64,000 nt of DNA from Thermoproteota archaeon (GTDB lineage: Archaea; Korarchaeota; JAOZGF01; JAOZFZ01): contig JAOZFT010000007.1 in assembly GCA_027492035.1 (NCBI GenBank), positions 39,042-103,041 on the forward strand. Reading direction: 5' to 3'. The notes under the pieces were generated by a model. The model saw only the letters and a list, made by a program, of their open reading frames with translations, did not search any database and was not told the DNA's origin. Below are positions 27,908 to 38,675 of the stretch, one piece after another; positions within the stretch are counted from its first letter, which is position 1, and each line of letters begins with the position of its first letter. A program made the position numbers and the translations under genes.

Positions 27908-28756
27908 ATGATTAAAATTTGTTTCCCTGTATTTTCTCATATTGTAATGGGTGAGGTATTCATTACAGTAATTGTAAGGTTTTCAACTGGTGTCAAAGGA
28001 CTAGATGAAATATTAGAAGGAGGAATTCCTAAAGGATTCCTTGTAGCGGTTACAGGGGAACCTGGCACAGGTAAAACAATCCTTTGTTTACACTTTATAA
28101 ATGAAGGCATCAAAACAGGCGATAAAGGTATATATGTTACGACCGAAGAATCTAGAGAATCTATCTTAAATCAAGCTAAACAGTTCAATATGGACTTTGA
28201 CAAGTACTTGGAAGAGGGAAACCTAATAATTATTGATGCTTTAATGGGCAGAAGAGAAGATGAATGGTCACTTAAAAGTTTGGACCCTGAGGAACTTGTC
28301 CAGTTGGTTATTAAAGCTAAAAAGAAACTTGGGTACGGTAATGCAAGGCTTGTAATTGACTCTATGAGTGCTTTCTGGCTGGATAAGCCGGCTACTGCAA
28401 GAAAGTATTCCTATTTTGTAAAAAAGGTTTTGAGTAAATGGAATTTCACTATCTTAATGGTTAGTCAGTACGCTATTACAACAAGTGACGCTTTCGGTTT
28501 CGGTTTGGAACATATAGCAGATGGGATCATTAGGTTCAGACGTTTCATAAGGGAGGGTAAACTTAAAAGATGTTTAATAGTTGAAAAAATGAGGCAAACC
28601 CCCCACAGTCTGAACATGTATGAAGTCTTGATCGAGGAAGGGAAAGGGTTAACCTTAAAGCCTTTAAAGGGAAGGAAAGAAGACATTGCTCTTCCTAAAT
28701 CAGTGACAAATAAGATAATTAAAGCTAAAGAGGAGAAAGAAAAGGAAATACCTTAA
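27908..28756 (+). CDS. KaiC-domain (RecA-superfamily) ATPase, PAE1156-like (true start probably a few codons downstream)
   Basis: STGVKGLD, GEPGTGKT, TTEES, LVIDSMSAFWLDKP, EHIADGII, VEKMRQT. Confidence 0.88.
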   Translation: MIKICFPVFSHIVMGEVFITVIVRFSTGVKGLDEILEGGIPKGFLVAVTGEPGTGKTILCLHFINEGIKTGDKGIYVTTEESRESILNQAKQFNMDFDKYLEEGNLIIIDALMGRREDEWSLKSLDPEELVQLVIKAKKKLGYGNARLVIDSMSAFWLDKPATARKYSYFVKKVLSKWNFTILMVSQYAITTSDAFGFGLEHIADGIIRFRRFIREGKLKRCLIVEKMRQTPHSLNMYEVLIEEGKGLTLKPLKGRKEDIALPKSVTNKIIKAKEEKEKEIP

Positions 28757-28812: not shown

Positions 28813-29739
28813 GTGTCCAAGCTAAAATATAGTGCAATCCTTGAACATTACATGAAGTACAAGGTGTGTAAAGAAATTTATGAGTTTTCTAGGGATAGAT
28901 GGGTGGCTTTACATTGCGAGAAAGAATTCAAAAAGAAAAAAGTTTTTGTTAGGTACATTTATGCCCCTTACAAGGAACTTTTAAAAATAACCAAGCCGAG
29001 CGACATATTCGAAATCATCAACTATTACAAAGAATTGAAACCTCGAACCTTTTACGCCTCTATTTTACAATTTAAAAGAATACTTTATGTCTTCGATGTT
29101 TTAAACCCTGCAAACGTTTACTCTTGCCTGCCTACCTGGGACGTCGATAATACAATTTCTAAATTTGAAGCTACTTTAAAAGCAGCTGAAAACATTTTAG
29201 ATGCATTGAGAAAGGAAAAAGTTGAAGAGTCTGTTTTTTTGAAATGGAGCGGCGAAGGTTTACATATTCACCTTCACCCTAAAGCAATAACTAAAGAATT
29301 GAAGAAAAAGATACATCCCTTGGACGCAGCTTACTCTTTAGTAGAATACATTAAAGAAAAAGTCGCAAAGAAAATCAAGGCTGTTTCATTAAGTTACCAA
29401 GCAAATAAATTAGTTGTGGAAAACATCATCCACTCAAAAAGTGTAATAACTGCACCTTTAACTTTCCATAGGGAGCAAGATAGAATTGCGGTTTGTATTG
29501 ACCCTAGCGAAGTAAATAATTTCAGTTTAGATTGGACAGAACCAAAGAAATTCAAACATTTCTGGCATTGGAAGGAAAAATTTAAACAAGGAGAAGCAGA
29601 TAAACTGGTTTTAAAATCTTACAAAAAAATAGGTTCCTGCCCCTACAGATTTAAACCTCCAAAAAAGAAAGGGAAACCTGTAGATAAATGGATTACTGAG
29701 TTTTTGAAGACAACAGAGGAAAAAGGAAGTGACAAATAA
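28813..29739 (+). CDS. Archaeo-eukaryotic primase (AEP) superfamily protein
   Basis: Motif I WDVD, motif II SGEGLHIH, motif III-like VITAPLTFH. Confidence 0.6.
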   Translation: MSKLKYSAILEHYMKYKVCKEIYEFSRDRWVALHCEKEFKKKKVFVRYIYAPYKELLKITKPSDIFEIINYYKELKPRTFYASILQFKRILYVFDVLNPANVYSCLPTWDVDNTISKFEATLKAAENILDALRKEKVEESVFLKWSGEGLHIHLHPKAITKELKKKIHPLDAAYSLVEYIKEKVAKKIKAVSLSYQANKLVVENIIHSKSVITAPLTFHREQDRIAVCIDPSEVNNFSLDWTEPKKFKHFWHWKEKFKQGEADKLVLKSYKKIGSCPYRFKPPKKKGKPVDKWITEFLKTTEEKGSDK

Positions 29740-30991
29740 GAAGAGGTCCCTCATAGCATTAACTTTCGTAATTGTTCTCCTTACCTCTACAACCCTTTTT
29801 TACTGGTTTTCCAAGCAAAAAACGCAAATTAAAGAAGTTAATGTTAATCCTGAGTACAGGGAAGTAACTGAAAAAATATTTGAGCAAGTTTTGTCGAAAA
29901 TAGAAGCTGTCCGTGGCCTCTCACTAAACAAGAAAGTGGGTTTAAAAATAGTTGATGTTAACTGGGTTAAAAAGAACTGGGGGAAAGAATTCATTGAATC
30001 AGCCAGTAGGGATTTATTTATCGAGCAGAAAATTTATGAAGCCCTTTTTCTAATCAACGAAAGTGTAAATTTGAAAAAGATAATGTATGACGAATATTCC
30101 CTTTTCACTGCTGCTGCTTGGCAGGGAGATATTTACGTTGTAAAGGAGAACTTTAACCCTTACAAAAAAATTGATGCTGAGAAAGTTCTCGCCCATGAAA
30201 TGACCCATATATTGCAGGGAGTACATTTCATGAAACCTAAAACAGAAACTTATGACTCAAAGCAGGCATGGTCTGCCTTAATTGAAGGCGACGCTATGCT
30301 CGCTGGAGATAAATTTGTTGAGGAAGAAATTTTCAACAAATCCAGAGTATCAGCCAAAACCACAGTTAAAGTTTTTAACAACCCTTTTTTTAACCCCTTC
30401 AACTATGAAGTAATACCGGAACCTCTAATTAAACTTTGGCTTTTCCCTTACCATTACGGTGAAGATTTTGTTCTTTACCTTTACAAAAAAGGGGGATGGA
30501 AAGAAGTGAATAATGCTTACCTTAACCCTCCGCAAACTACAGAGCAAATAATTCACATTAAGAAATACTTAAAAAATGAAAGTTTCTTAAAAGTTCCAAG
30601 TGTAAAAATAAACGGTTCAGGTTGGGAGGAAGCAAGAAATGACAGACTAGGTGAACACTTCATTTACGTCACTCTCTCAACTTGGACAACTGAAAAAGAA
30701 GCTGAAAAAGCAAGTTATGGTTGGGGAGGCGACAATTTCACACTTTACTTAAACAAGAGGGGGGATTACTTTTTCACGTGGTTGATTCGCTGGGACAACT
30801 TAAACGACAGTGAAGAATTTTATCAATGTTTAACAAAGGCTCTGAGAGATGGAATAAAGGCAAAAAAATTATTAAATGGCATTTGGGGTGAGGAAGGGAA
30901 ATACATTTGGTTTAAAGAATATAAAGATAAAGTCTTAATTGCTGGTTCTTCAAACTTTGAACAATTGAAAAACTTTACGGAAATAAACTAG
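29729..30991 (+). CDS. Membrane-anchored extracellular zinc metallopeptidase-like protein
   Basis: N-terminal TM; LAHEMTHILQ (HEXXH) and downstream EGDA; FPY..G; PPQTTEQIIH; GWGGD. Confidence 0.65.
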   Translation: MTNKKRSLIALTFVIVLLTSTTLFYWFSKQKTQIKEVNVNPEYREVTEKIFEQVLSKIEAVRGLSLNKKVGLKIVDVNWVKKNWGKEFIESASRDLFIEQKIYEALFLINESVNLKKIMYDEYSLFTAAAWQGDIYVVKENFNPYKKIDAEKVLAHEMTHILQGVHFMKPKTETYDSKQAWSALIEGDAMLAGDKFVEEEIFNKSRVSAKTTVKVFNNPFFNPFNYEVIPEPLIKLWLFPYHYGEDFVLYLYKKGGWKEVNNAYLNPPQTTEQIIHIKKYLKNESFLKVPSVKINGSGWEEARNDRLGEHFIYVTLSTWTTEKEAEKASYGWGGDNFTLYLNKRGDYFFTWLIRWDNLNDSEEFYQCLTKALRDGIKAKKLLNGIWGEEGKYIWFKEYKDKVLIAGSSNFEQLKNFTEIN

Positions 30992-33184: not shown

Positions 33185-33505
33185 TTAAAGCCTTAATTTC
33201 CAGATTTTGTAAATATGGTAAAGTCCATAAATAAAAAGGATTAAAAAAATTATTTCTAAGAGTTCATCCACAAAAAGAAGAGAAAAACCTAAAACAAAGA
33301 AGCGTCTTGGGTTTAAGAAACGAACTAACCTCAAAAAATCATGCGCCATAAAAACTATAGAAGCAAAGAAAATGGCAGAAAACCCCTTCTTAAAAACACT
33401 TCCACCAAAAATTTTCAGTACATATAACCCAATTACGCCTGCAATTACTCCTAAACAGAAAATTGTGAGTTCCAATATTAATCCAATACTTAGCATAGAG
33501 AACAA
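33185..33505 (-). CDS. Small membrane protein (about 3 TM), unknown function
   Basis: Hydrophobic helices; GGGGT RBS; last gene of the minus-strand cluster. Confidence 0.6.
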   Translation of the reverse strand: MFSMLSIGLILELTIFCLGVIAGVIGLYVLKIFGGSVFKKGFSAIFFASIVFMAHDFLRLVRFLNPRRFFVLGFSLLFVDELLEIIFLILFIYGLYHIYKIWKLRL

Positions 33506-33528
33506 CGTGACCCCCTTTTAAAAGTTTT

Positions 33529-33816
33529 TTAAAATGTCAAGTACCCTTCCTTTTTCAATTTTACTAAGAGCTGCTTAACCTCCTCAAAACTGAACCCCTC
33601 GATTTTACTTTGTTCTATATAGATTTCTTTCATGGTTTTTACACCGTCGATGTTTAAAATTACCCCCTTCTCTCTTTCATCCAGTTCCTTTATTGCATTT
33701 AAAAAGAAATCCATCTTCTGTAAGGGACTTACCCACACCGGAATCGCTTTTTCAAAGGAACTCATTCTTTCTTCTTCCAAACCCTTTTTCTTAACAGAAT
33801 CTAAGCCCCTGCTCAT
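33529..33816 (-). CDS. Small winged-helix-module protein
   Basis: AIPVW...ILNIDGVKTMKEI...LVKLKKEGYLTF; 4-bp overlap with the upstream gene. Confidence 0.55.
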   Translation of the reverse strand: MSRGLDSVKKKGLEEERMSSFEKAIPVWVSPLQKMDFFLNAIKELDEREKGVILNIDGVKTMKEIYIEQSKIEGFSFEEVKQLLVKLKKEGYLTF

Positions 33817-34406
33817 TTAACCACTTCAATAGGTTTCAGAGTAAGTATGTGATAAAAGACCTTTTTCTCAAATACTTCTCTTATGTCCGCCGAGAAGGGT
33901 TCACCTAAAGCTATTTCAAAAATTCCAGCTATTAACCCTGCAAAATAGCTCCAATCCTTTACTTTTAATGTTTTGTTTCCTATTCTGAAAATATAAGGCG
34001 GAGATTTCTTTAATTTACCGTTTGAAACTGTTCTATCGAATAATAAATTGAAAATCTTGATTTTAATTGTAAACTTTTCTGCATCAGCCTTAACTACCAC
34101 TACTTGACTTTGATTCCCGGTTAAATAAGATGTTAAGGTGGGAAGAGAGTTAGAGACTGTACGGAAAATTTCTTCCTTCAACTCTTTCTTTATTGTTTCA
34201 TCTAAAGCTGCTAAAGACAATACTTCTTTCCCTATCTCCCTCCCTATTTTCTTTCCGGTTAAATAAACGTAGTCTTTTAAACCTAATGAAGATATTGCGT
34301 TCTGCAATTCAACAAGCTGAATAAGAAGTATTTTAACCATTTTATCAGTTACCTTAAAGGTTTCGGCGCAGTCATCCTCTATTAAATGATTGAGAAATGG
34401 ATTCAT
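33813..34406 (-). CDS. V4R/Bet3-like fold protein
   Basis: YLTGKKIGREIG helix and YFAGLIAGIFEIALG motif typical of the V4R/H-NOX/TRAPP fold; no Zn-binding Cys in that part. Confidence 0.5.
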   Translation of the reverse strand: MNPFLNHLIEDDCAETFKVTDKMVKILLIQLVELQNAISSLGLKDYVYLTGKKIGREIGKEVLSLAALDETIKKELKEEIFRTVSNSLPTLTSYLTGNQSQVVVVKADAEKFTIKIKIFNLLFDRTVSNGKLKKSPPYIFRIGNKTLKVKDWSYFAGLIAGIFEIALGEPFSADIREVFEKKVFYHILTLKPIEVVK

Positions 34407-34456
34407 AAAATTCCCGCTTCTTTTAAGTTTTTGAAAAGAACAAATTCAAGTAAGGG

Positions 34457-35158
34457 TTACTTCTCTTTAAAAAAGGGAAGGATTTCTAACTGAGTCATGT
34501 CTTTAAGTATTAAAGTACAACCAGACTTTTTCAGTTCCTTCCTTGTCGCGTAACCTGTAGAAACAGCTATAAAAGGTATTCCAGCACTCTCCGCACATTT
34601 TAAATCTAAAGGATGGTCCCCAATAAAAACTGCCTTTTTAACCCCTAATTTTTTAAGTATAGTTAAAATTGGTTCTTTACTTGGTTTAGGAGTTTCTACA
34701 TCGTTCCTAGCCACTATTTCGTCCACATAATCTATCAAACCTGTCTTTTCTAAGGCTTTAACAGCATATTCCCGACATGCTCTTGTAACAACTCCAATTT
34801 TAAATCCTTCCTTTTTTAAATGGGCTAAGACCTCTTTTACCCCCTCAATTGATTTAACAGAAGTTAAACCTTCCATTTCGTATCTGTTCATTAAAGAGTT
34901 AATTTCTTCTTTAATATGCTGGGTTTCTATTTCCCGTTTCTGTTTTAAGTAATTCATGCCTTTAGTTATAATTTCGTAAGTAACTTCTTCCAAAGTGAAA
35001 AAATTCATAGGTACTCCTTTTCTTACAAAGTAGTTCACTAAAGCCTTCTTCATCGACCTAAAATCTATTTTTGAATGGATTAATGTTCCATCTAAATCGA
35101 AAAGAAAAGCTTCTAATTTAACTTTTGAACCTCTCAATTCGCTCAAACCCTTCTTCAA
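34457..35158 (-). CDS. HAD-superfamily phosphatase (phosphoglycolate phosphatase-like)
   Basis: FDLDGTL, VVTR, KPS, FIGDHPLD. Confidence 0.88.
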   Translation of the reverse strand: MKKGLSELRGSKVKLEAFLFDLDGTLIHSKIDFRSMKKALVNYFVRKGVPMNFFTLEEVTYEIITKGMNYLKQKREIETQHIKEEINSLMNRYEMEGLTSVKSIEGVKEVLAHLKKEGFKIGVVTRACREYAVKALEKTGLIDYVDEIVARNDVETPKPSKEPILTILKKLGVKKAVFIGDHPLDLKCAESAGIPFIAVSTGYATRKELKKSGCTLILKDMTQLEILPFFKEK

Positions 35159-35262
35159 GCAAAAACGTTAATCAATACTTTTCAGAGTTGAAAATCTTAA
35201 TTTTGTGGAGAAATCAAATTTTCCAAAAAAAGGAAGGGCTTGGGAAAGAATCCATGAATAAT

Positions 35263-36192
35263 TCATTTCTTGAAGAAGGCAAAAGTTAATTTTCCTTTCT
35301 TATACAACTCTACGTAGCCCTTCAACAGTTCCTCTTCTGAAACTTTGTTTTTAAAGTATCCACTTGTGGCTTCATAAATTTCTTTTAAATTTCTTTCGCC
35401 TGTAACTAACGCTAAGGTACCGTAAATCAAGGTTTCTTTATTGTTTAGGCTGTAGCTTTCCCTTTTTTCAAAAACAAAATTGGGAAGCAATTTAGGCACA
35501 ACATCTTCTAACTTAAAAATACGCGGTATAAATGACGAAAGTGCAATGAATTTTATATTTTCTATTATATTAATAACTAAAGGGAGATATTCAGGCTTCA
35601 ATGAGGCTTTCTTTAAACTTTCACTTGCTGATAGACTCGCAATCATAGCTGAACCATAAAAAATGTTTATCTTTACAAGAAGTTCCTTAACTTTATTCTT
35701 GATTATTACTGAAGTAAGTTCAGGTGGTTCATCCCATATTTCGTCAAGGAACTCCTTCTCAAAAAGTGAACTTACAGGTTCAGAATTCACCCATTTTTTC
35801 TCATCCAGCAAAAAAACACAAGTTTCCTTATTTAATTTATCCTTGACCATAGAAAATACTTCAGGGCTAAGTATAAGTACCCATCCTCTTTCAACAGGCA
35901 ATATTTCCATTATATCTTGTTGATCCAAATCAGTTCCCAAATAAAGGTTTAAATTGGCGTTTTCACTCCTTTCTTCATTCTCAATGTTTTCTTTAAAATA
36001 CTTCATCACCGGGCCTGAGAAATATTGAATATTTTCTACAAACGAGAACTCAGAAAGGGACTGAAGAATTTCTTTAGGTGCCTCAAATAAACCAACTATT
36101 ATTAAGGGTTTCCTGGTTAATATACAATTAATAAATTTTTCAAGGTTCCCTCTTCCAAAAACCTTTTTTAATTCAGCAAAACCCAAAAGCAT
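35263..36192 (-). CDS. Hypothetical protein: cDENN-like N-terminal region plus C-terminal wHTH module
   Basis: Intact 309-aa ORF with GAGGGG RBS; fold assignment is from pattern only (see findings). Confidence 0.45.
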   Translation of the reverse strand: MLLGFAELKKVFGRGNLEKFINCILTRKPLIIVGLFEAPKEILQSLSEFSFVENIQYFSGPVMKYFKENIENEERSENANLNLYLGTDLDQQDIMEILPVERGWVLILSPEVFSMVKDKLNKETCVFLLDEKKWVNSEPVSSLFEKEFLDEIWDEPPELTSVIIKNKVKELLVKINIFYGSAMIASLSASESLKKASLKPEYLPLVINIIENIKFIALSSFIPRIFKLEDVVPKLLPNFVFEKRESYSLNNKETLIYGTLALVTGERNLKEIYEATSGYFKNKVSEEELLKGYVELYKKGKLTFAFFKK

Positions 36193-36227
36193 CCCCTCAA
36201 TAATCCCCCTAACTTTTCTAAACCTCT

Positions 36228-36686
36228 TTAAATTCTTGGTTTCAAAATTTTATTTTTGAAACAGTAGGCTACTATTTTTGAGGCAGCGTCTTTACTTAAA
36301 AGATTCTCTTCCGCTATTTCTTTCAAAGTTTTTGAATTATCTACACTCGAAAGAAAGTCTATAGCTTCTACACCAAACGATTTAACTAATTCATCCTTAA
36401 ATCCACCAAAAAATGATTTTTCAAAATTTTCTGCCTTCTCAAGCACTACAGATTCACCTATTAAGAAAAGAACCCCTTTCTCCATTAATTTCTTAACAGC
36501 CTTCATGAATGCTTCAAAAGGAAAAGCATGTTTAAAAACGGGAGACAAGTTTTCATATAAAGCTGAAACGGTATTTAACCCATTAGAAGTCACTACTAAA
36601 ACAAGTTCTTCTAAAGAAGAAACCTTCAAGGAAGCTAATAAATCAAAGTTTCCAATGACGACAGGTGCAGCCTCTTCTAAACTCAC
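36228..36686 (-). CDS. Hypothetical protein with two wHTH modules
   Basis: SNGLNTVSALY...KKLMEKGVL and VDNSKTLKEIAEE...YCFKNKIL. Confidence 0.5.
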   Translation of the reverse strand: MSLEEAAPVVIGNFDLLASLKVSSLEELVLVVTSNGLNTVSALYENLSPVFKHAFPFEAFMKAVKKLMEKGVLFLIGESVVLEKAENFEKSFFGGFKDELVKSFGVEAIDFLSSVDNSKTLKEIAEENLLSKDAASKIVAYCFKNKILKPRI

Positions 36687-36899: not shown

Positions 36900-38675
36900 A
36901 TGAACTCTGTAACAGGTTCAACAAAAATTTTTTCTGAATTAAGAAGTATATTTGAAAATTTTCCGCAACCAGTCTTGGCTTTAAATGATAAATTTGAACT
37001 AACTTATTTCAATGAAGCTTTTGAAAAGTTAACAGGGTACATTAAGTCTGAACTGTTAAGTAAAAAAATTTTCAGTCTTTTCCCAGAGTCTTATATTTCA
37101 GAAAAGAACCATTCATACTTTGCGTTGAAAAATGAAGAAAAAATACTCACGTTAAAGAAACAGGATGGAAATCTCATAACCGTAAAGACGCAAATGTTTA
37201 ATTTAAACGCTTTTCCAAGTCTTAAGTTCATTATTTTGAAAGAAACCAACACTTCAGAGTTTACATATAAAGAATTGCTTGAAAATTCGTTAGTTGGGAT
37301 ATATTTGGTTCAGGACGGGGTTTTCAAGCTTGTAAACAAGAAATTTTTAGAGATAGGGGGATATAGGGAAGAGGAAGTTATAAATAAGCCCTTTTGGTTG
37401 TTTATTCATCCACAGGACAGGGAAATCGTTAAAAAGAGGGGATTACAAAGGGAGAAAGGAGATAATGTGCCTTCCCAGTATCAGTTTAAGGCTTTAAGAA
37501 AAAACGGCGAATCAATAGACGTGGAAATAAGGGCCGTTAGAGTAAAATATAACGGAAAACCAGCCATACTTGGAAATGTACGAGACATAACTAACCTTAA
37601 AAGAAAGGAGGAGGAGTTAAGGAAACTAAAGGAATTTAATGAAATGATTATCAGAAATATGCAGGAAGGAGTAATTCTTCGAGACCTACATGACAAAATT
37701 GTTTTCGTAAACCCAAAAATAGCCGAAATAACCGGTTTTAAAGAAGAAGAACTTGTAGGTTCTGAATGGAATAAATTGTTTACATTCAGTGAATATGAAG
37801 AAGAGGGAAGCAGAAGAGACAAGGAAAGAACAAGCCGGCGTTACGAAGCGTATTTAAAAACAAAAAAGGGGGAAATGATTCCAGTGATGATTAACTCAAA
37901 CTCTCTTACAAAAGAGGGTGGGTTTCAAGGCTTCCTTTCAGTAATTGTTGATACAAGAGAAATTAAGGAAATGGAGAAGGAACTGAAAGAAGTAATTAGA
38001 GACCTGAAAAATTTCGACTTTATAATTTCCCAAGACCTAAAAGGCCCTATAAGGGCAATCAGGAACTATGCCCTTTTCTTGAAAAAGGAAATAAAGAAAC
38101 TGAAAGAAATTCCACCGGAAGTTTCATTATATACTGAAAGAATAATTAAAAACACCAAAATCCTTAATAAAATGATTGAAGACTTGCTTTACTACTCTAT
38201 TTTAAGTAAGTCACAAATGAGATTTAAGGAAGTGAATCTGGATCAAGTAATTAAGGATATACTTTTTAACCTGAAAGAAACAATAAGGGAAAATAATGCT
38301 CAAGTGATTATTAATAATCCACTGCCTAAGGTTAAGGGAGCTAAATCACAACTTTATAAGCTTTTTGAAATATTAATTTTGGATGGTATAACCTTTAATT
38401 ACAGCTCAAACCCCCTTGTTAAAATAAGTTATGTAAGAGACAATGAAGGGTTTATCTTCAAAATTGAAGACAACGGAACATTTTTAACGGAGTACCAATT
38501 AAGAAACCTTTTTAAGTCAGCAAGAGGGCTTCGTTTAGCTAAGGAGGAACACTTAAGTTTAAGCACTAATTTAGCAATTTGTAAGAGAATAGTTGAGAGA
38601 CACGAGGGGAAATTATGGGTTGAAACGAGGAGAAACAAAGGGACAACTGTTTATTTAACCTTCCCTCACCCTTAA
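36900..38675 (+). CDS. Cytoplasmic 3xPAS histidine-kinase-like protein, catalytically degenerate
   Basis: Three PAS/PAC repeats (NEAFEKLTGY, NKKFLEIGGY..IHPQDR, NPKIAEITGF); HisKA/HATPase scaffold with H, N, G1 and G2 boxes altered. Confidence 0.85.
   Translation: MNSVTGSTKIFSELRSIFENFPQPVLALNDKFELTYFNEAFEKLTGYIKSELLSKKIFSLFPESYISEKNHSYFALKNEEKILTLKKQDGNLITVKTQMFNLNAFPSLKFIILKETNTSEFTYKELLENSLVGIYLVQDGVFKLVNKKFLEIGGYREEEVINKPFWLFIHPQDREIVKKRGLQREKGDNVPSQYQFKALRKNGESIDVEIRAVRVKYNGKPAILGNVRDITNLKRKEEELRKLKEFNEMIIRNMQEGVILRDLHDKIVFVNPKIAEITGFKEEELVGSEWNKLFTFSEYEEEGSRRDKERTSRRYEAYLKTKKGEMIPVMINSNSLTKEGGFQGFLSVIVDTREIKEMEKELKEVIRDLKNFDFIISQDLKGPIRAIRNYALFLKKEIKKLKEIPPEVSLYTERIIKNTKILNKMIEDLLYYSILSKSQMRFKEVNLDQVIKDILFNLKETIRENNAQVIINNPLPKVKGAKSQLYKLFEILILDGITFNYSSNPLVKISYVRDNEGFIFKIEDNGTFLTEYQLRNLFKSARGLRLAKEEHLSLSTNLAICKRIVERHEGKLWVETRRNKGTTVYLTFPHP

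Follow-up and report, generated by a model that had tools for sequence, protein, structure and literature searches.

A stretch of 64,000 nucleotides from an uncultured heat-vent Thermoproteota archaeon (assembly GCA_027492035.1, contig JAOZFT010000007.1, positions 39,042 to 103,041), hereafter the window, carries a cluster of six co-oriented, closely spaced genes on its minus strand that encode proteins of 106, 95, 197, 233, 309, and 152 amino acids. At the core of this cluster is what we read, from structural models, as a very rare two-gene unit in an apparently non-Asgard archaeon: a 309-residue protein predicted to adopt a DENN fold without a longin domain, and a 152-residue adaptor composed of two copies of a small module that also ends the DENN-like protein. 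A first-pass annotation of the window, made from its letters alone, had proposed that all six genes form one complex or signaling module. Although the six minus-strand genes and every peptide string quoted there are indeed present in the open reading frame (ORF) translations, the single complex is not supported by conservation, as only the genes for the 152- and 309-residue proteins are adjacent in the sole sister genus.

DENN domains count as a hallmark of membrane-traffic control in eukaryotes. A true DENN fold in a small-genome archaeon without the tested Asgard markers would bear on when this GTPase-regulator fold arose. At 309 and 152 residues, with a predicted interface between them, the pair would also be a small system in which to ask what a DENN core does without a longin partner.

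The predicted DENN fold of the 309-residue protein

Our best reading of residues ~1-217 of the 309-residue protein, judged from a predicted structure, is a DENN fold. The model was built by AlphaFold2 without templates from an alignment of two sequences, and has a mean predicted local distance difference test score (pLDDT) of 59.3 and a predicted template-modeling score (pTM) of 0.54, with confidence best at residues 10-40 and 100-210 (pLDDT 68-83). Predicted strands at residues 30-33, 83-85, 105-108, 125-128, and 133-135, flanked by helices, make up a five-stranded α/β sandwich of cDENN type, at the moderate confidence of a predicted model. Helices at residues 146-153, 157-183, 189-195, and 200-212 come after the sheet, such that an all-helical d-DENN-like part directly follows the central domain, and the structural alignments described next extend across it to residues 211-223.

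Because two independent fold searches rank DENN domains first, we accept the cDENN domain that the first-pass annotation had placed at the N terminus of this protein. VIA-align, which is independent of Foldseek, was run against 48,161 representative chains, and its six best matches are all DENN domains, from four eukaryotic complexes: DENND1A (Z 13.8; 185 residues aligned at an rmsd of 4.2, with model residues 1-217 on chain residues 168-366), DENND10 (Z 12.4), two folliculin entries (Z 11.4 and 11.3), SMCR8 (Z 10.7), and C9orf72 (Z 10.2). These matches cover 178-186 residues and as a group end 2.4 Z units above the first non-DENN fold, a GspE-type ATPase at rank 7 (Z 7.8). In the Foldseek search of the PDB, 12 of the 15 top rows are chains of DENN-protein entries (DENND1B, DENND1A, DENND10, C9orf72-SMCR8, and FLCN-FNIP2). 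No longin (u-DENN) domain precedes the DENN region: the alignments begin at residue 1 or 2 of the model and at residues 156-345 of the targets, past their longin, and the upstream 152-residue gene encodes two winged-helix-like modules, not a longin.

We consider it unlikely that this likeness reflects convergence or the prior of the structure predictor, the N-terminal domain being some other α/β domain with a helical lid (for example, a degenerate P-loop or AAA-like domain) and its neighbors unrelated orphans. Much of what weighs against a DENN fold would suit such a scenario. The model is of low-to-moderate confidence and rests on two sequences from a family of only two members, with residues 52-88 and 214-309 below pLDDT 50; the Foldseek E-values are all at least 0.01, none reaching 0.001, with TM-scores no higher than 0.41; and the next structural matches below the DENN domains are P-loop ATPases of the same α/β-plus-helical layout. 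Nor was sequence similarity to DENN families detected. No Pfam family (DENN, Folliculin, C9orf72-like, or others) matches the protein at E ≤ 1, its two-sequence profile finds no PDB chain at E ≤ 10, and the ESM Atlas returned no usable match. What speaks for a DENN fold instead is the unanimity of the six best chains and the gap beneath them, together with the lack, in both orthologues, of a Walker A motif behind strand 1, where the 309-residue protein reads PLIIVGLFEAPKE and its sister-genus counterpart PLIIVDDFKKPEE. ESMFold2 also folded the 309-residue chain at pLDDT 84-90 within the complex considered below, which bears on model confidence.

The shared module and the conserved pair

A module of ~75 residues occurs in four copies in three of the cluster proteins: two in the 152-residue protein, one at the C terminus of the 309-residue protein, and one in the 95-residue protein. 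The copies match one another in register by BLASTP, the 95-residue protein aligning with the C terminus of the 309-residue protein (E 0.006) and with the N terminus of the 152-residue protein (E 8e-4), and the latter two with each other (E 0.006). Seven copies, four from this genome and three from the sister genus (genome G001), align over 79 columns, and the profile built from them matches only these three proteins among the 5139 ORFs of at least 50 amino acids in the genome, the next match standing at E 0.067. The earlier claim of four copies of one module is upheld by this alignment and these searches. When its own copy is left out of the profile, the 95-residue protein is still the best non-training match, over its full length (E 4.5e-4; next 0.019). 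When built from the sister-genus copies alone, three in number, the profile finds the 152-residue protein at E 2.7e-17 and the 309-residue protein at 3.6e-12 but ranks the 95-residue protein no higher than fourth (E 0.053), after a primase subunit (0.017); because of this rank we regard the 95-residue protein as the weakest member of the set, although its membership is real. Weak matches of the module profile elsewhere in the genome (Rpb4, the primase large subunit, FolE2, and LeuA) were taken as chance.

Outside the cluster, the module is scarce. Among the 43 genomes of the phylum surveyed, strong matches are confined to this genome (four copies) and G001 (three). A different family of the phylum accounts for two weak matches (E 0.003 and 0.005), one in each of two genomes (L073:3-683 in G023:C163 and L074:1060-1695 in G020:C60), with the module-like stretch at the protein end; one of these proteins, of 211 residues, is encoded directly after ftsZ and has a winged-helix-like tail, and the other is cut by the contig end. 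Within the genome, a 70-residue ORF at C17:1984-2196, with no Pfam family, matched the 95-residue protein at E 9e-4 in a genome-wide search and may, judging by this match, be a fifth, very diverged small relative.

The pair formed by the 152- and 309-residue proteins is conserved and exceedingly rare. In G001, which represents the only sister genus, belongs to the same family, and is 94% complete, genes for proteins of 155 and 305 residues lie 15 nt apart, and both products share 41% identity with the corresponding proteins of this genome; a further gene, beginning 48 nt beyond the pair, is not the HAD gene. The 309-residue protein is present in 2 of the 41 genomes searched, including this one, and only two of 1.84 billion protein representatives belong to its family, while the family of the 152-residue protein has two members in an index of 5.8 billion clusters. 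Wider sequence searches with either protein returned only the protein itself or its sister-genus orthologue; 590 pattern matches on JGI metagenome contigs included no relative, and the one locus found among species-representative genomes is the G001 contig itself. A profile of the DENN-like part found no paralogue in the genome (next match E 0.47), and a profile of the 152-residue protein gave nothing useful against PDB sequences (the best, a pilin, at 0.2). A match to the 152-residue protein in genome G002 (E 0.0043) falls outside any listed ORF and was judged to be chance.

The two proteins are predicted to bind each other module to module. Complex prediction, with a two-row alignment for each chain and three controls, gave an interface score (ipSAE) of 0.66 for the pair (0.70, 0.64, and 0.66 in the separate runs) and at best 0.00 for the controls. 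Contacts agreed by at least 95% between runs, with a partner pLDDT of at least 87, and the predicted interface sets residues 235-283 of the 309-residue protein, in its C-terminal module, against residues 9-55 of the 152-residue protein, in its N-terminal one. Two considerations temper this prediction. In calibration, 58 of 80 solved complexes attained the mark of 0.66, as did 2 of 110 mismatched pairs, counts that hold only roughly for two-row alignments, and conservation is not enriched at the interface, where 11 of 31 positions are identical in the module of the 309-residue protein (20 of 48 in its remainder) and 10 of 27 in that of its partner (16 of 49 in its remainder).

What fold the module takes is less clear than that its copies are related, and of the first-pass proposal of a repeated winged helix-turn-helix (HTH) the repeat is supported while the fold is weakly backed. 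An AlphaFold2 model of the copy in the 95-residue protein, made from the seven-copy alignment, has a pLDDT of 56.7; its best Foldseek match has E 1.9 and its best VIA-align match Z 4.9, no chain reaching Z 5. Despite these weak scores, both lists consist mostly of winged-helix domains, which lends weak support to a winged-helix-like module. They include protein-binding examples (Stn1, Rpa2, cullin WHB, Roco COR, and the MCM C terminus) and DNA-binding ones (PerR, BlaI, CRP, and GntR-, PadR-, and IclR-type regulators). Scanned one by one against Pfam, the seven copies share no family matched by more than one of them, and none matches DUF4388. The module profile found nothing useful among PDB sequences (calbindin at 0.037 and a MarR-type protein at 0.18 were best).

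The many DNA-binding winged helices among these matches would suit ordinary one-component transcription regulators, in which the module is a DNA-binding winged HTH and the DENN-like domain and the V4R-like 197-residue protein are attached or split ligand-sensing domains. Such a reading is also consistent with a match of MarR_2 to residues 109-141 of the 152-residue protein, in its second module (E 0.0027, the only Pfam match below E 0.01 in the cluster apart from that of the HAD protein), with the basic isoelectric point (pI) of the C-terminal module of the 309-residue protein (9.1), and with V4R being a small-molecule-binding domain common in the phylum. We nevertheless find it improbable. 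The other three module copies are neutral or acidic (pI 5.2, 5.5, and 8.0), the 152-residue protein consists of two modules without a sensor domain, and the complex model sets two modules against each other. Furthermore, many of the best structural matches bind protein, as in Stn1, Rpa2, cullin WHB, and Roco COR, and among eight V4R proteins of the phylum that were scanned (260-296 residues), an ACT domain is present in six and an HTH in none.

The neighboring unit and its surroundings

Pfam and NCBIfam put a name on one cluster protein only, the 233-residue HAD-IA hydrolase. Its identity as a HAD phosphatase, recognized from the start, is secure: Pfam HAD_2 matches at E 5.4e-33 (115 bits, cut-off 23.8) and NCBIfam HAD-SF-IA-v1 at 51.8 bits (cut-off 23.3), and the DxDGT motif I is present as FDLDGTL at residues 20-26. 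The specific NCBIfam equivalogs, among the matches listed, all fall below their own cut-offs. An orthologue with 37% identity exists in G001, on another contig and between genes for a surface protein and a membrane protein, and the phosphatase is probably outside the conserved unit.

The 197-residue protein, as far as sequence comparison can tell, appears to be a divergent, cysteine-less relative of V4R proteins; the first-pass annotation had called it V4R/Bet3-like. BLASTP matches it to a 162-residue, Pfam-V4R-positive protein of the same genome at E 9e-5, and a profile of 39 V4R sequences from the phylum scores 10.4 bits on it. Aligned by hhalign with ten short V4R proteins, it scores 28.0 and is collinear with them (residues 3-183 on 12-163), including the Y..G...G helix and the C-terminal F.aG.iaG..E motif, whereas 200 shuffled sequences score 12.1 ± 2.1 with a maximum of 19.5, none reaching 28.0. 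The ESM Atlas offers leads to V4R clusters (0.89-0.90) and TRAPP (0.88). In the hhalign alignment the V4R cysteines are replaced, that before F.aG by tyrosine and that in E..C by valine, and the Pfam V4R model gives no match at E ≤ 1. The protein is otherwise an orphan in sequence searches, and nothing useful was found among PDB sequences (the best, COG2, at E 0.092). V4R proteins occur in 35 of the 43 genomes of the phylum, mostly as ACT-V4R fusions, and since they are so common, the presence of this protein is not in itself a eukaryote-like trait. Tandem pairs of such fusions, of ~270 residues each, recur in the large family of the phylum (G005, G004, G003, and G024), and several are also weak matches to XylR_N (for example, L034:32-1686).

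The stop codon of the V4R-like gene overlaps the start of the 95-residue gene by 4 nt, and the gaps along the cluster from the 106- to the 152-residue gene are 23, -4 (this overlap), 50, 104, and 35 nt. In the 106-residue protein, windows in which hydropathy exceeds 1.6 lie at residues 1-38, about 43-61, and 68-101, amounting to about three membrane-spanning stretches. Neither G001 nor G002 yielded the 197-, 95-, or 106-residue protein with these queries. Because no other searched genome matched, these three genes are tied to the conserved pair by the shared module alone.

We therefore see two adjacent units in the cluster (Table 1): only the 152- and 309-residue pair recurs in G001, the HAD orthologue lies elsewhere there, a run of T follows the 309-residue gene, and the 152-residue gene, which starts with GTG, has a TATA-like ATTATAAA and a Shine-Dalgarno-like GGGTGAT upstream. 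The spacer behind the 309-residue gene may accordingly mark the end of a first transcription unit. A scan for sigma-70 promoters gave as many matches as expected from shuffled sequence, with a model that is unsuited to an archaeon.

Table 1. Features of the six-gene cluster, in window coordinates
Feature	Position	Strand	Basis or remark
152-residue protein, two module copies	36228..36686	-	ORF; profile i-E 1.7e-28 and 9.7e-23
Module N copy of 152-residue protein, residues 1-76	36459-36686	-	
Module C copy of 152-residue protein, residues 84-151	36234-36437	-	
309-residue protein gene	35263-36192	-	ORF
Predicted DENN-fold region, residues 1-217 of 309-residue protein	35542..36192	-	AlphaFold2 model, VIA-align, Foldseek
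Third module copy, residues 226-304 of 309-residue protein	35281..35517	-	i-E 6e-31; predicted contact surface for 152-residue protein
104-nt spacer 3' of 309-residue gene	35159..35262	-	seven-T run ~35 nt past stop codon
HAD-IA family phosphatase, 233 residues	34457..35158	-	Pfam HAD_2, NCBIfam HAD-SF-IA-v1
Divergent V4R-like protein, 197 residues	33813..34406	-	BLASTP, hhalign, ESM Atlas leads
95-residue protein	33529..33816	-	fourth module copy, residues 20-95 (33532-33759)
106-residue hydrophobic orphan protein	33185..33505	-	hydropathy

The 13 neighboring proteins scanned, between 25.5 and 45.6 kb of the window, are housekeeping or sensory, and include a thiolase/DUF35 pair, a histidine kinase with three PAS domains, a site-2 protease, a Dpo4-type polymerase, and a RACo-type corrinoid activase; among these 13 there is no GTPase, longin, or roadblock protein, in line with the first-pass annotation. 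That the cluster belongs to a mobile element, a virus, or a defense island is very improbable. In favor of such an origin are the orphans that make up the majority of its genes and a GC content that falls to 0.326 over 34-38 kb, compared with 0.33-0.41 elsewhere. Against it, PADLOC finds nothing at E ≤ 0.1 except a marginal 0.0056 on the HAD protein, and no PHROG match of the five non-HAD proteins is better than 0.028. Housekeeping genes lie on both flanks taken together (the thiolase/DUF35 pair, the polymerase, and the protease), and a second genus retains the pair at 41% identity.

Two further features of the surroundings may be recorded. The histidine kinase (36900-38675, plus strand; 591 residues, cytoplasmic) is encoded divergently from the 152-residue gene across a 213-nt AT-rich spacer; in G001 it does not adjoin the pair, which has a radical-SAM gene upstream of it there. 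At 28813-30991 (plus strand), two consecutive genes for proteins of 308 and 420 residues without a Pfam family directly follow the gene for a KaiC-like ATPase (27908-28756), the 420-residue protein having an N-terminal hydrophobic stretch and an HEMTH motif.

Host, proposed function, and likeness to known systems

The genome is 93% complete, and the GTDB set for its phylum comprises 43 species with genomes of 0.5-2.9 Mb. Asgard hallmarks were checked because Njordarchaeales, a group whose gene content is Asgard, can be placed next to Korarchaeota (PMC10307638). A search of the genome for profilin found none, a blank that shows little because control genomes were blank too, and EAP30 gave no match over its cut-off. 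The Pfam Actin match reaches only 51.6 bits (a 429-residue ORF, contig C9 183833-184822), which we take to be far below what an Asgard actin would score. These three markers, rather than phylogeny, speak for a host outside the Asgard archaea.

A small GTPase and roadblock proteins are encoded in the rest of the genome, unlinked to the cluster. Five matches to roadblock pass the cut-off; the Ras superfamily has just one that does, a 205-residue MglA-type small GTPase on contig C9, the start of whose gene is overlapped by that of a 221-residue roadblock/MglB-like protein with a long acidic tail (C9:455084-456338; L068:3084-4338). This pair of genes lies between those for the RtcB ligase (rtcB) and DNA ligase.

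Taking the genes, the module copies, the fold matches, the conservation of the pair, and its predicted pairing together, we tentatively favor, at somewhat less than an even chance, a joint explanation in which two adjacent units, rather than one six-gene machine, make up the cluster. The first unit, kept in the sister genus, would consist of the 152-residue tandem-module adaptor and the longin-less DENN-fold protein, whose residues ~1-217 would adopt the cDENN and dDENN fold of eukaryotic and Asgard small-GTPase regulators and whose C-terminal module would pair with the N-terminal module of the adaptor. The second, species-specific unit would comprise the HAD phosphatase, the V4R-like protein translationally coupled to the 95-residue module, and the small membrane protein. 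In this scheme the module would serve as a protein-pairing device, and the free second module of the adaptor could recruit the 95-residue protein and, through it, the V4R-like protein as a ligand sensor; both the bridge to that protein and the sensing of a ligand we infer. The DENN-fold domain might then act as a noncatalytic platform for a partner whose gene lies elsewhere, be it a small GTPase or a roadblock protein, for instance the roadblock/MglA-type pair on C9, although regulation of a GTPase by this protein is put forward as an analogy only.

Beyond the doubts about the fold and the interface, several observations count against this explanation. The V4R-like, 95-residue, and membrane genes are unmatched in the other genomes searched with these queries, the T-run behind the 309-residue gene suggests separate transcripts, and the cluster has no linked GTPase or roadblock gene, the roadblock/MglA-type pair being on another contig. 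In known DENN proteins, moreover, the longin carries catalytic or GTPase-contacting parts, as stated in PMC3521125 and PMC12290439. More speculative still, and in our estimation doubtful, is an evolutionary scenario that takes the DENN fold beyond eukaryotes and Asgard archaea: a longin-less DENN protein would be retained by a hot-vent lineage on the TACK side (Thermoproteota/Korarchaeota-like), its private winged-helix module pairing with an adaptor and, in this species, with a V4R-type ligand sensor. Such a minimal scaffold from sensor to GTPase regulator would either predate the DENN radiation of Asgard archaea and eukaryotes or have been transferred out of it.

In our full-text search of the literature, DENN domains were not reported from any archaeon outside the Asgard group, although supplementary tables, which are outside such a search, might list one, and a term search in a Korarchaeota paper (PMC12787533) returned none of DENN, GTPase, roadblock, longin, or TRAPP. 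Among known systems, the closest resemblance in predicted structure is to the C-terminal DENN domain of folliculin (3v42, 6nzd) and the DENN domains of SMCR8/C9orf72 (6lt0, 7o2w), DENND1A/B (6ekk, 3tw8), and DENND10 (8p0v), with which the 309-residue protein shares the predicted sandwich and the helical d-DENN-like part. Unlike these eukaryotic proteins, it has no longin (u-DENN), no detectable sequence similarity, and no linked GTPase; it has a C-terminal winged-helix-like module for pairing, and its host is an apparently non-Asgard archaeon. A similar mixture is seen in the 197-residue protein, which is collinear with V4R proteins (PF02830), a family related to the Bet3/TRAPP fold, yet differs in its replaced cysteines and its failure to match the Pfam model at E ≤ 1, and for which a relationship to TRAPP is a lead from the ESM Atlas only (0.88).

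Asgard archaea provide a prokaryotic precedent. According to Liu et al. (bioRxiv 10.1101/2020.10.19.343400), they encode DENN proteins as well as an operon of a LAMTOR1-like roadblock protein, a Rab-like GTPase, and a DENN protein; that report dates from 2020 and calls the domain "so far identified only in eukaryotes". Like those proteins, the 309-residue protein would be an archaeal DENN-type domain in an architecture unseen in eukaryotes. The Asgard operon includes roadblock and GTPase genes and the families are large, whereas here the predicted DENN protein has a tandem-module adaptor as its only conserved neighbor, in a family of two members, and in a genome that, unlike Asgard hosts, has no profilin match, no EAP30 over the cut-off, and weak actin.

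A final parallel is offered by NPRL2/NPRL3 of GATOR1 (Npr2/3), in which, according to Zhang et al. 2012 (PMC3521125), a longin is followed by winged-helix domains. No NPRL chain is among the 50 best structural matches of the module. In both cases, winged-helix-type modules are joined to a domain from the DENN/longin world, with the winged helices presumed to serve assembly and not DNA binding. NPRL2/3 keep the longin and have an abbreviated or absent central DENN; the 309-residue protein, with a predicted central DENN and no longin, would be the reverse.

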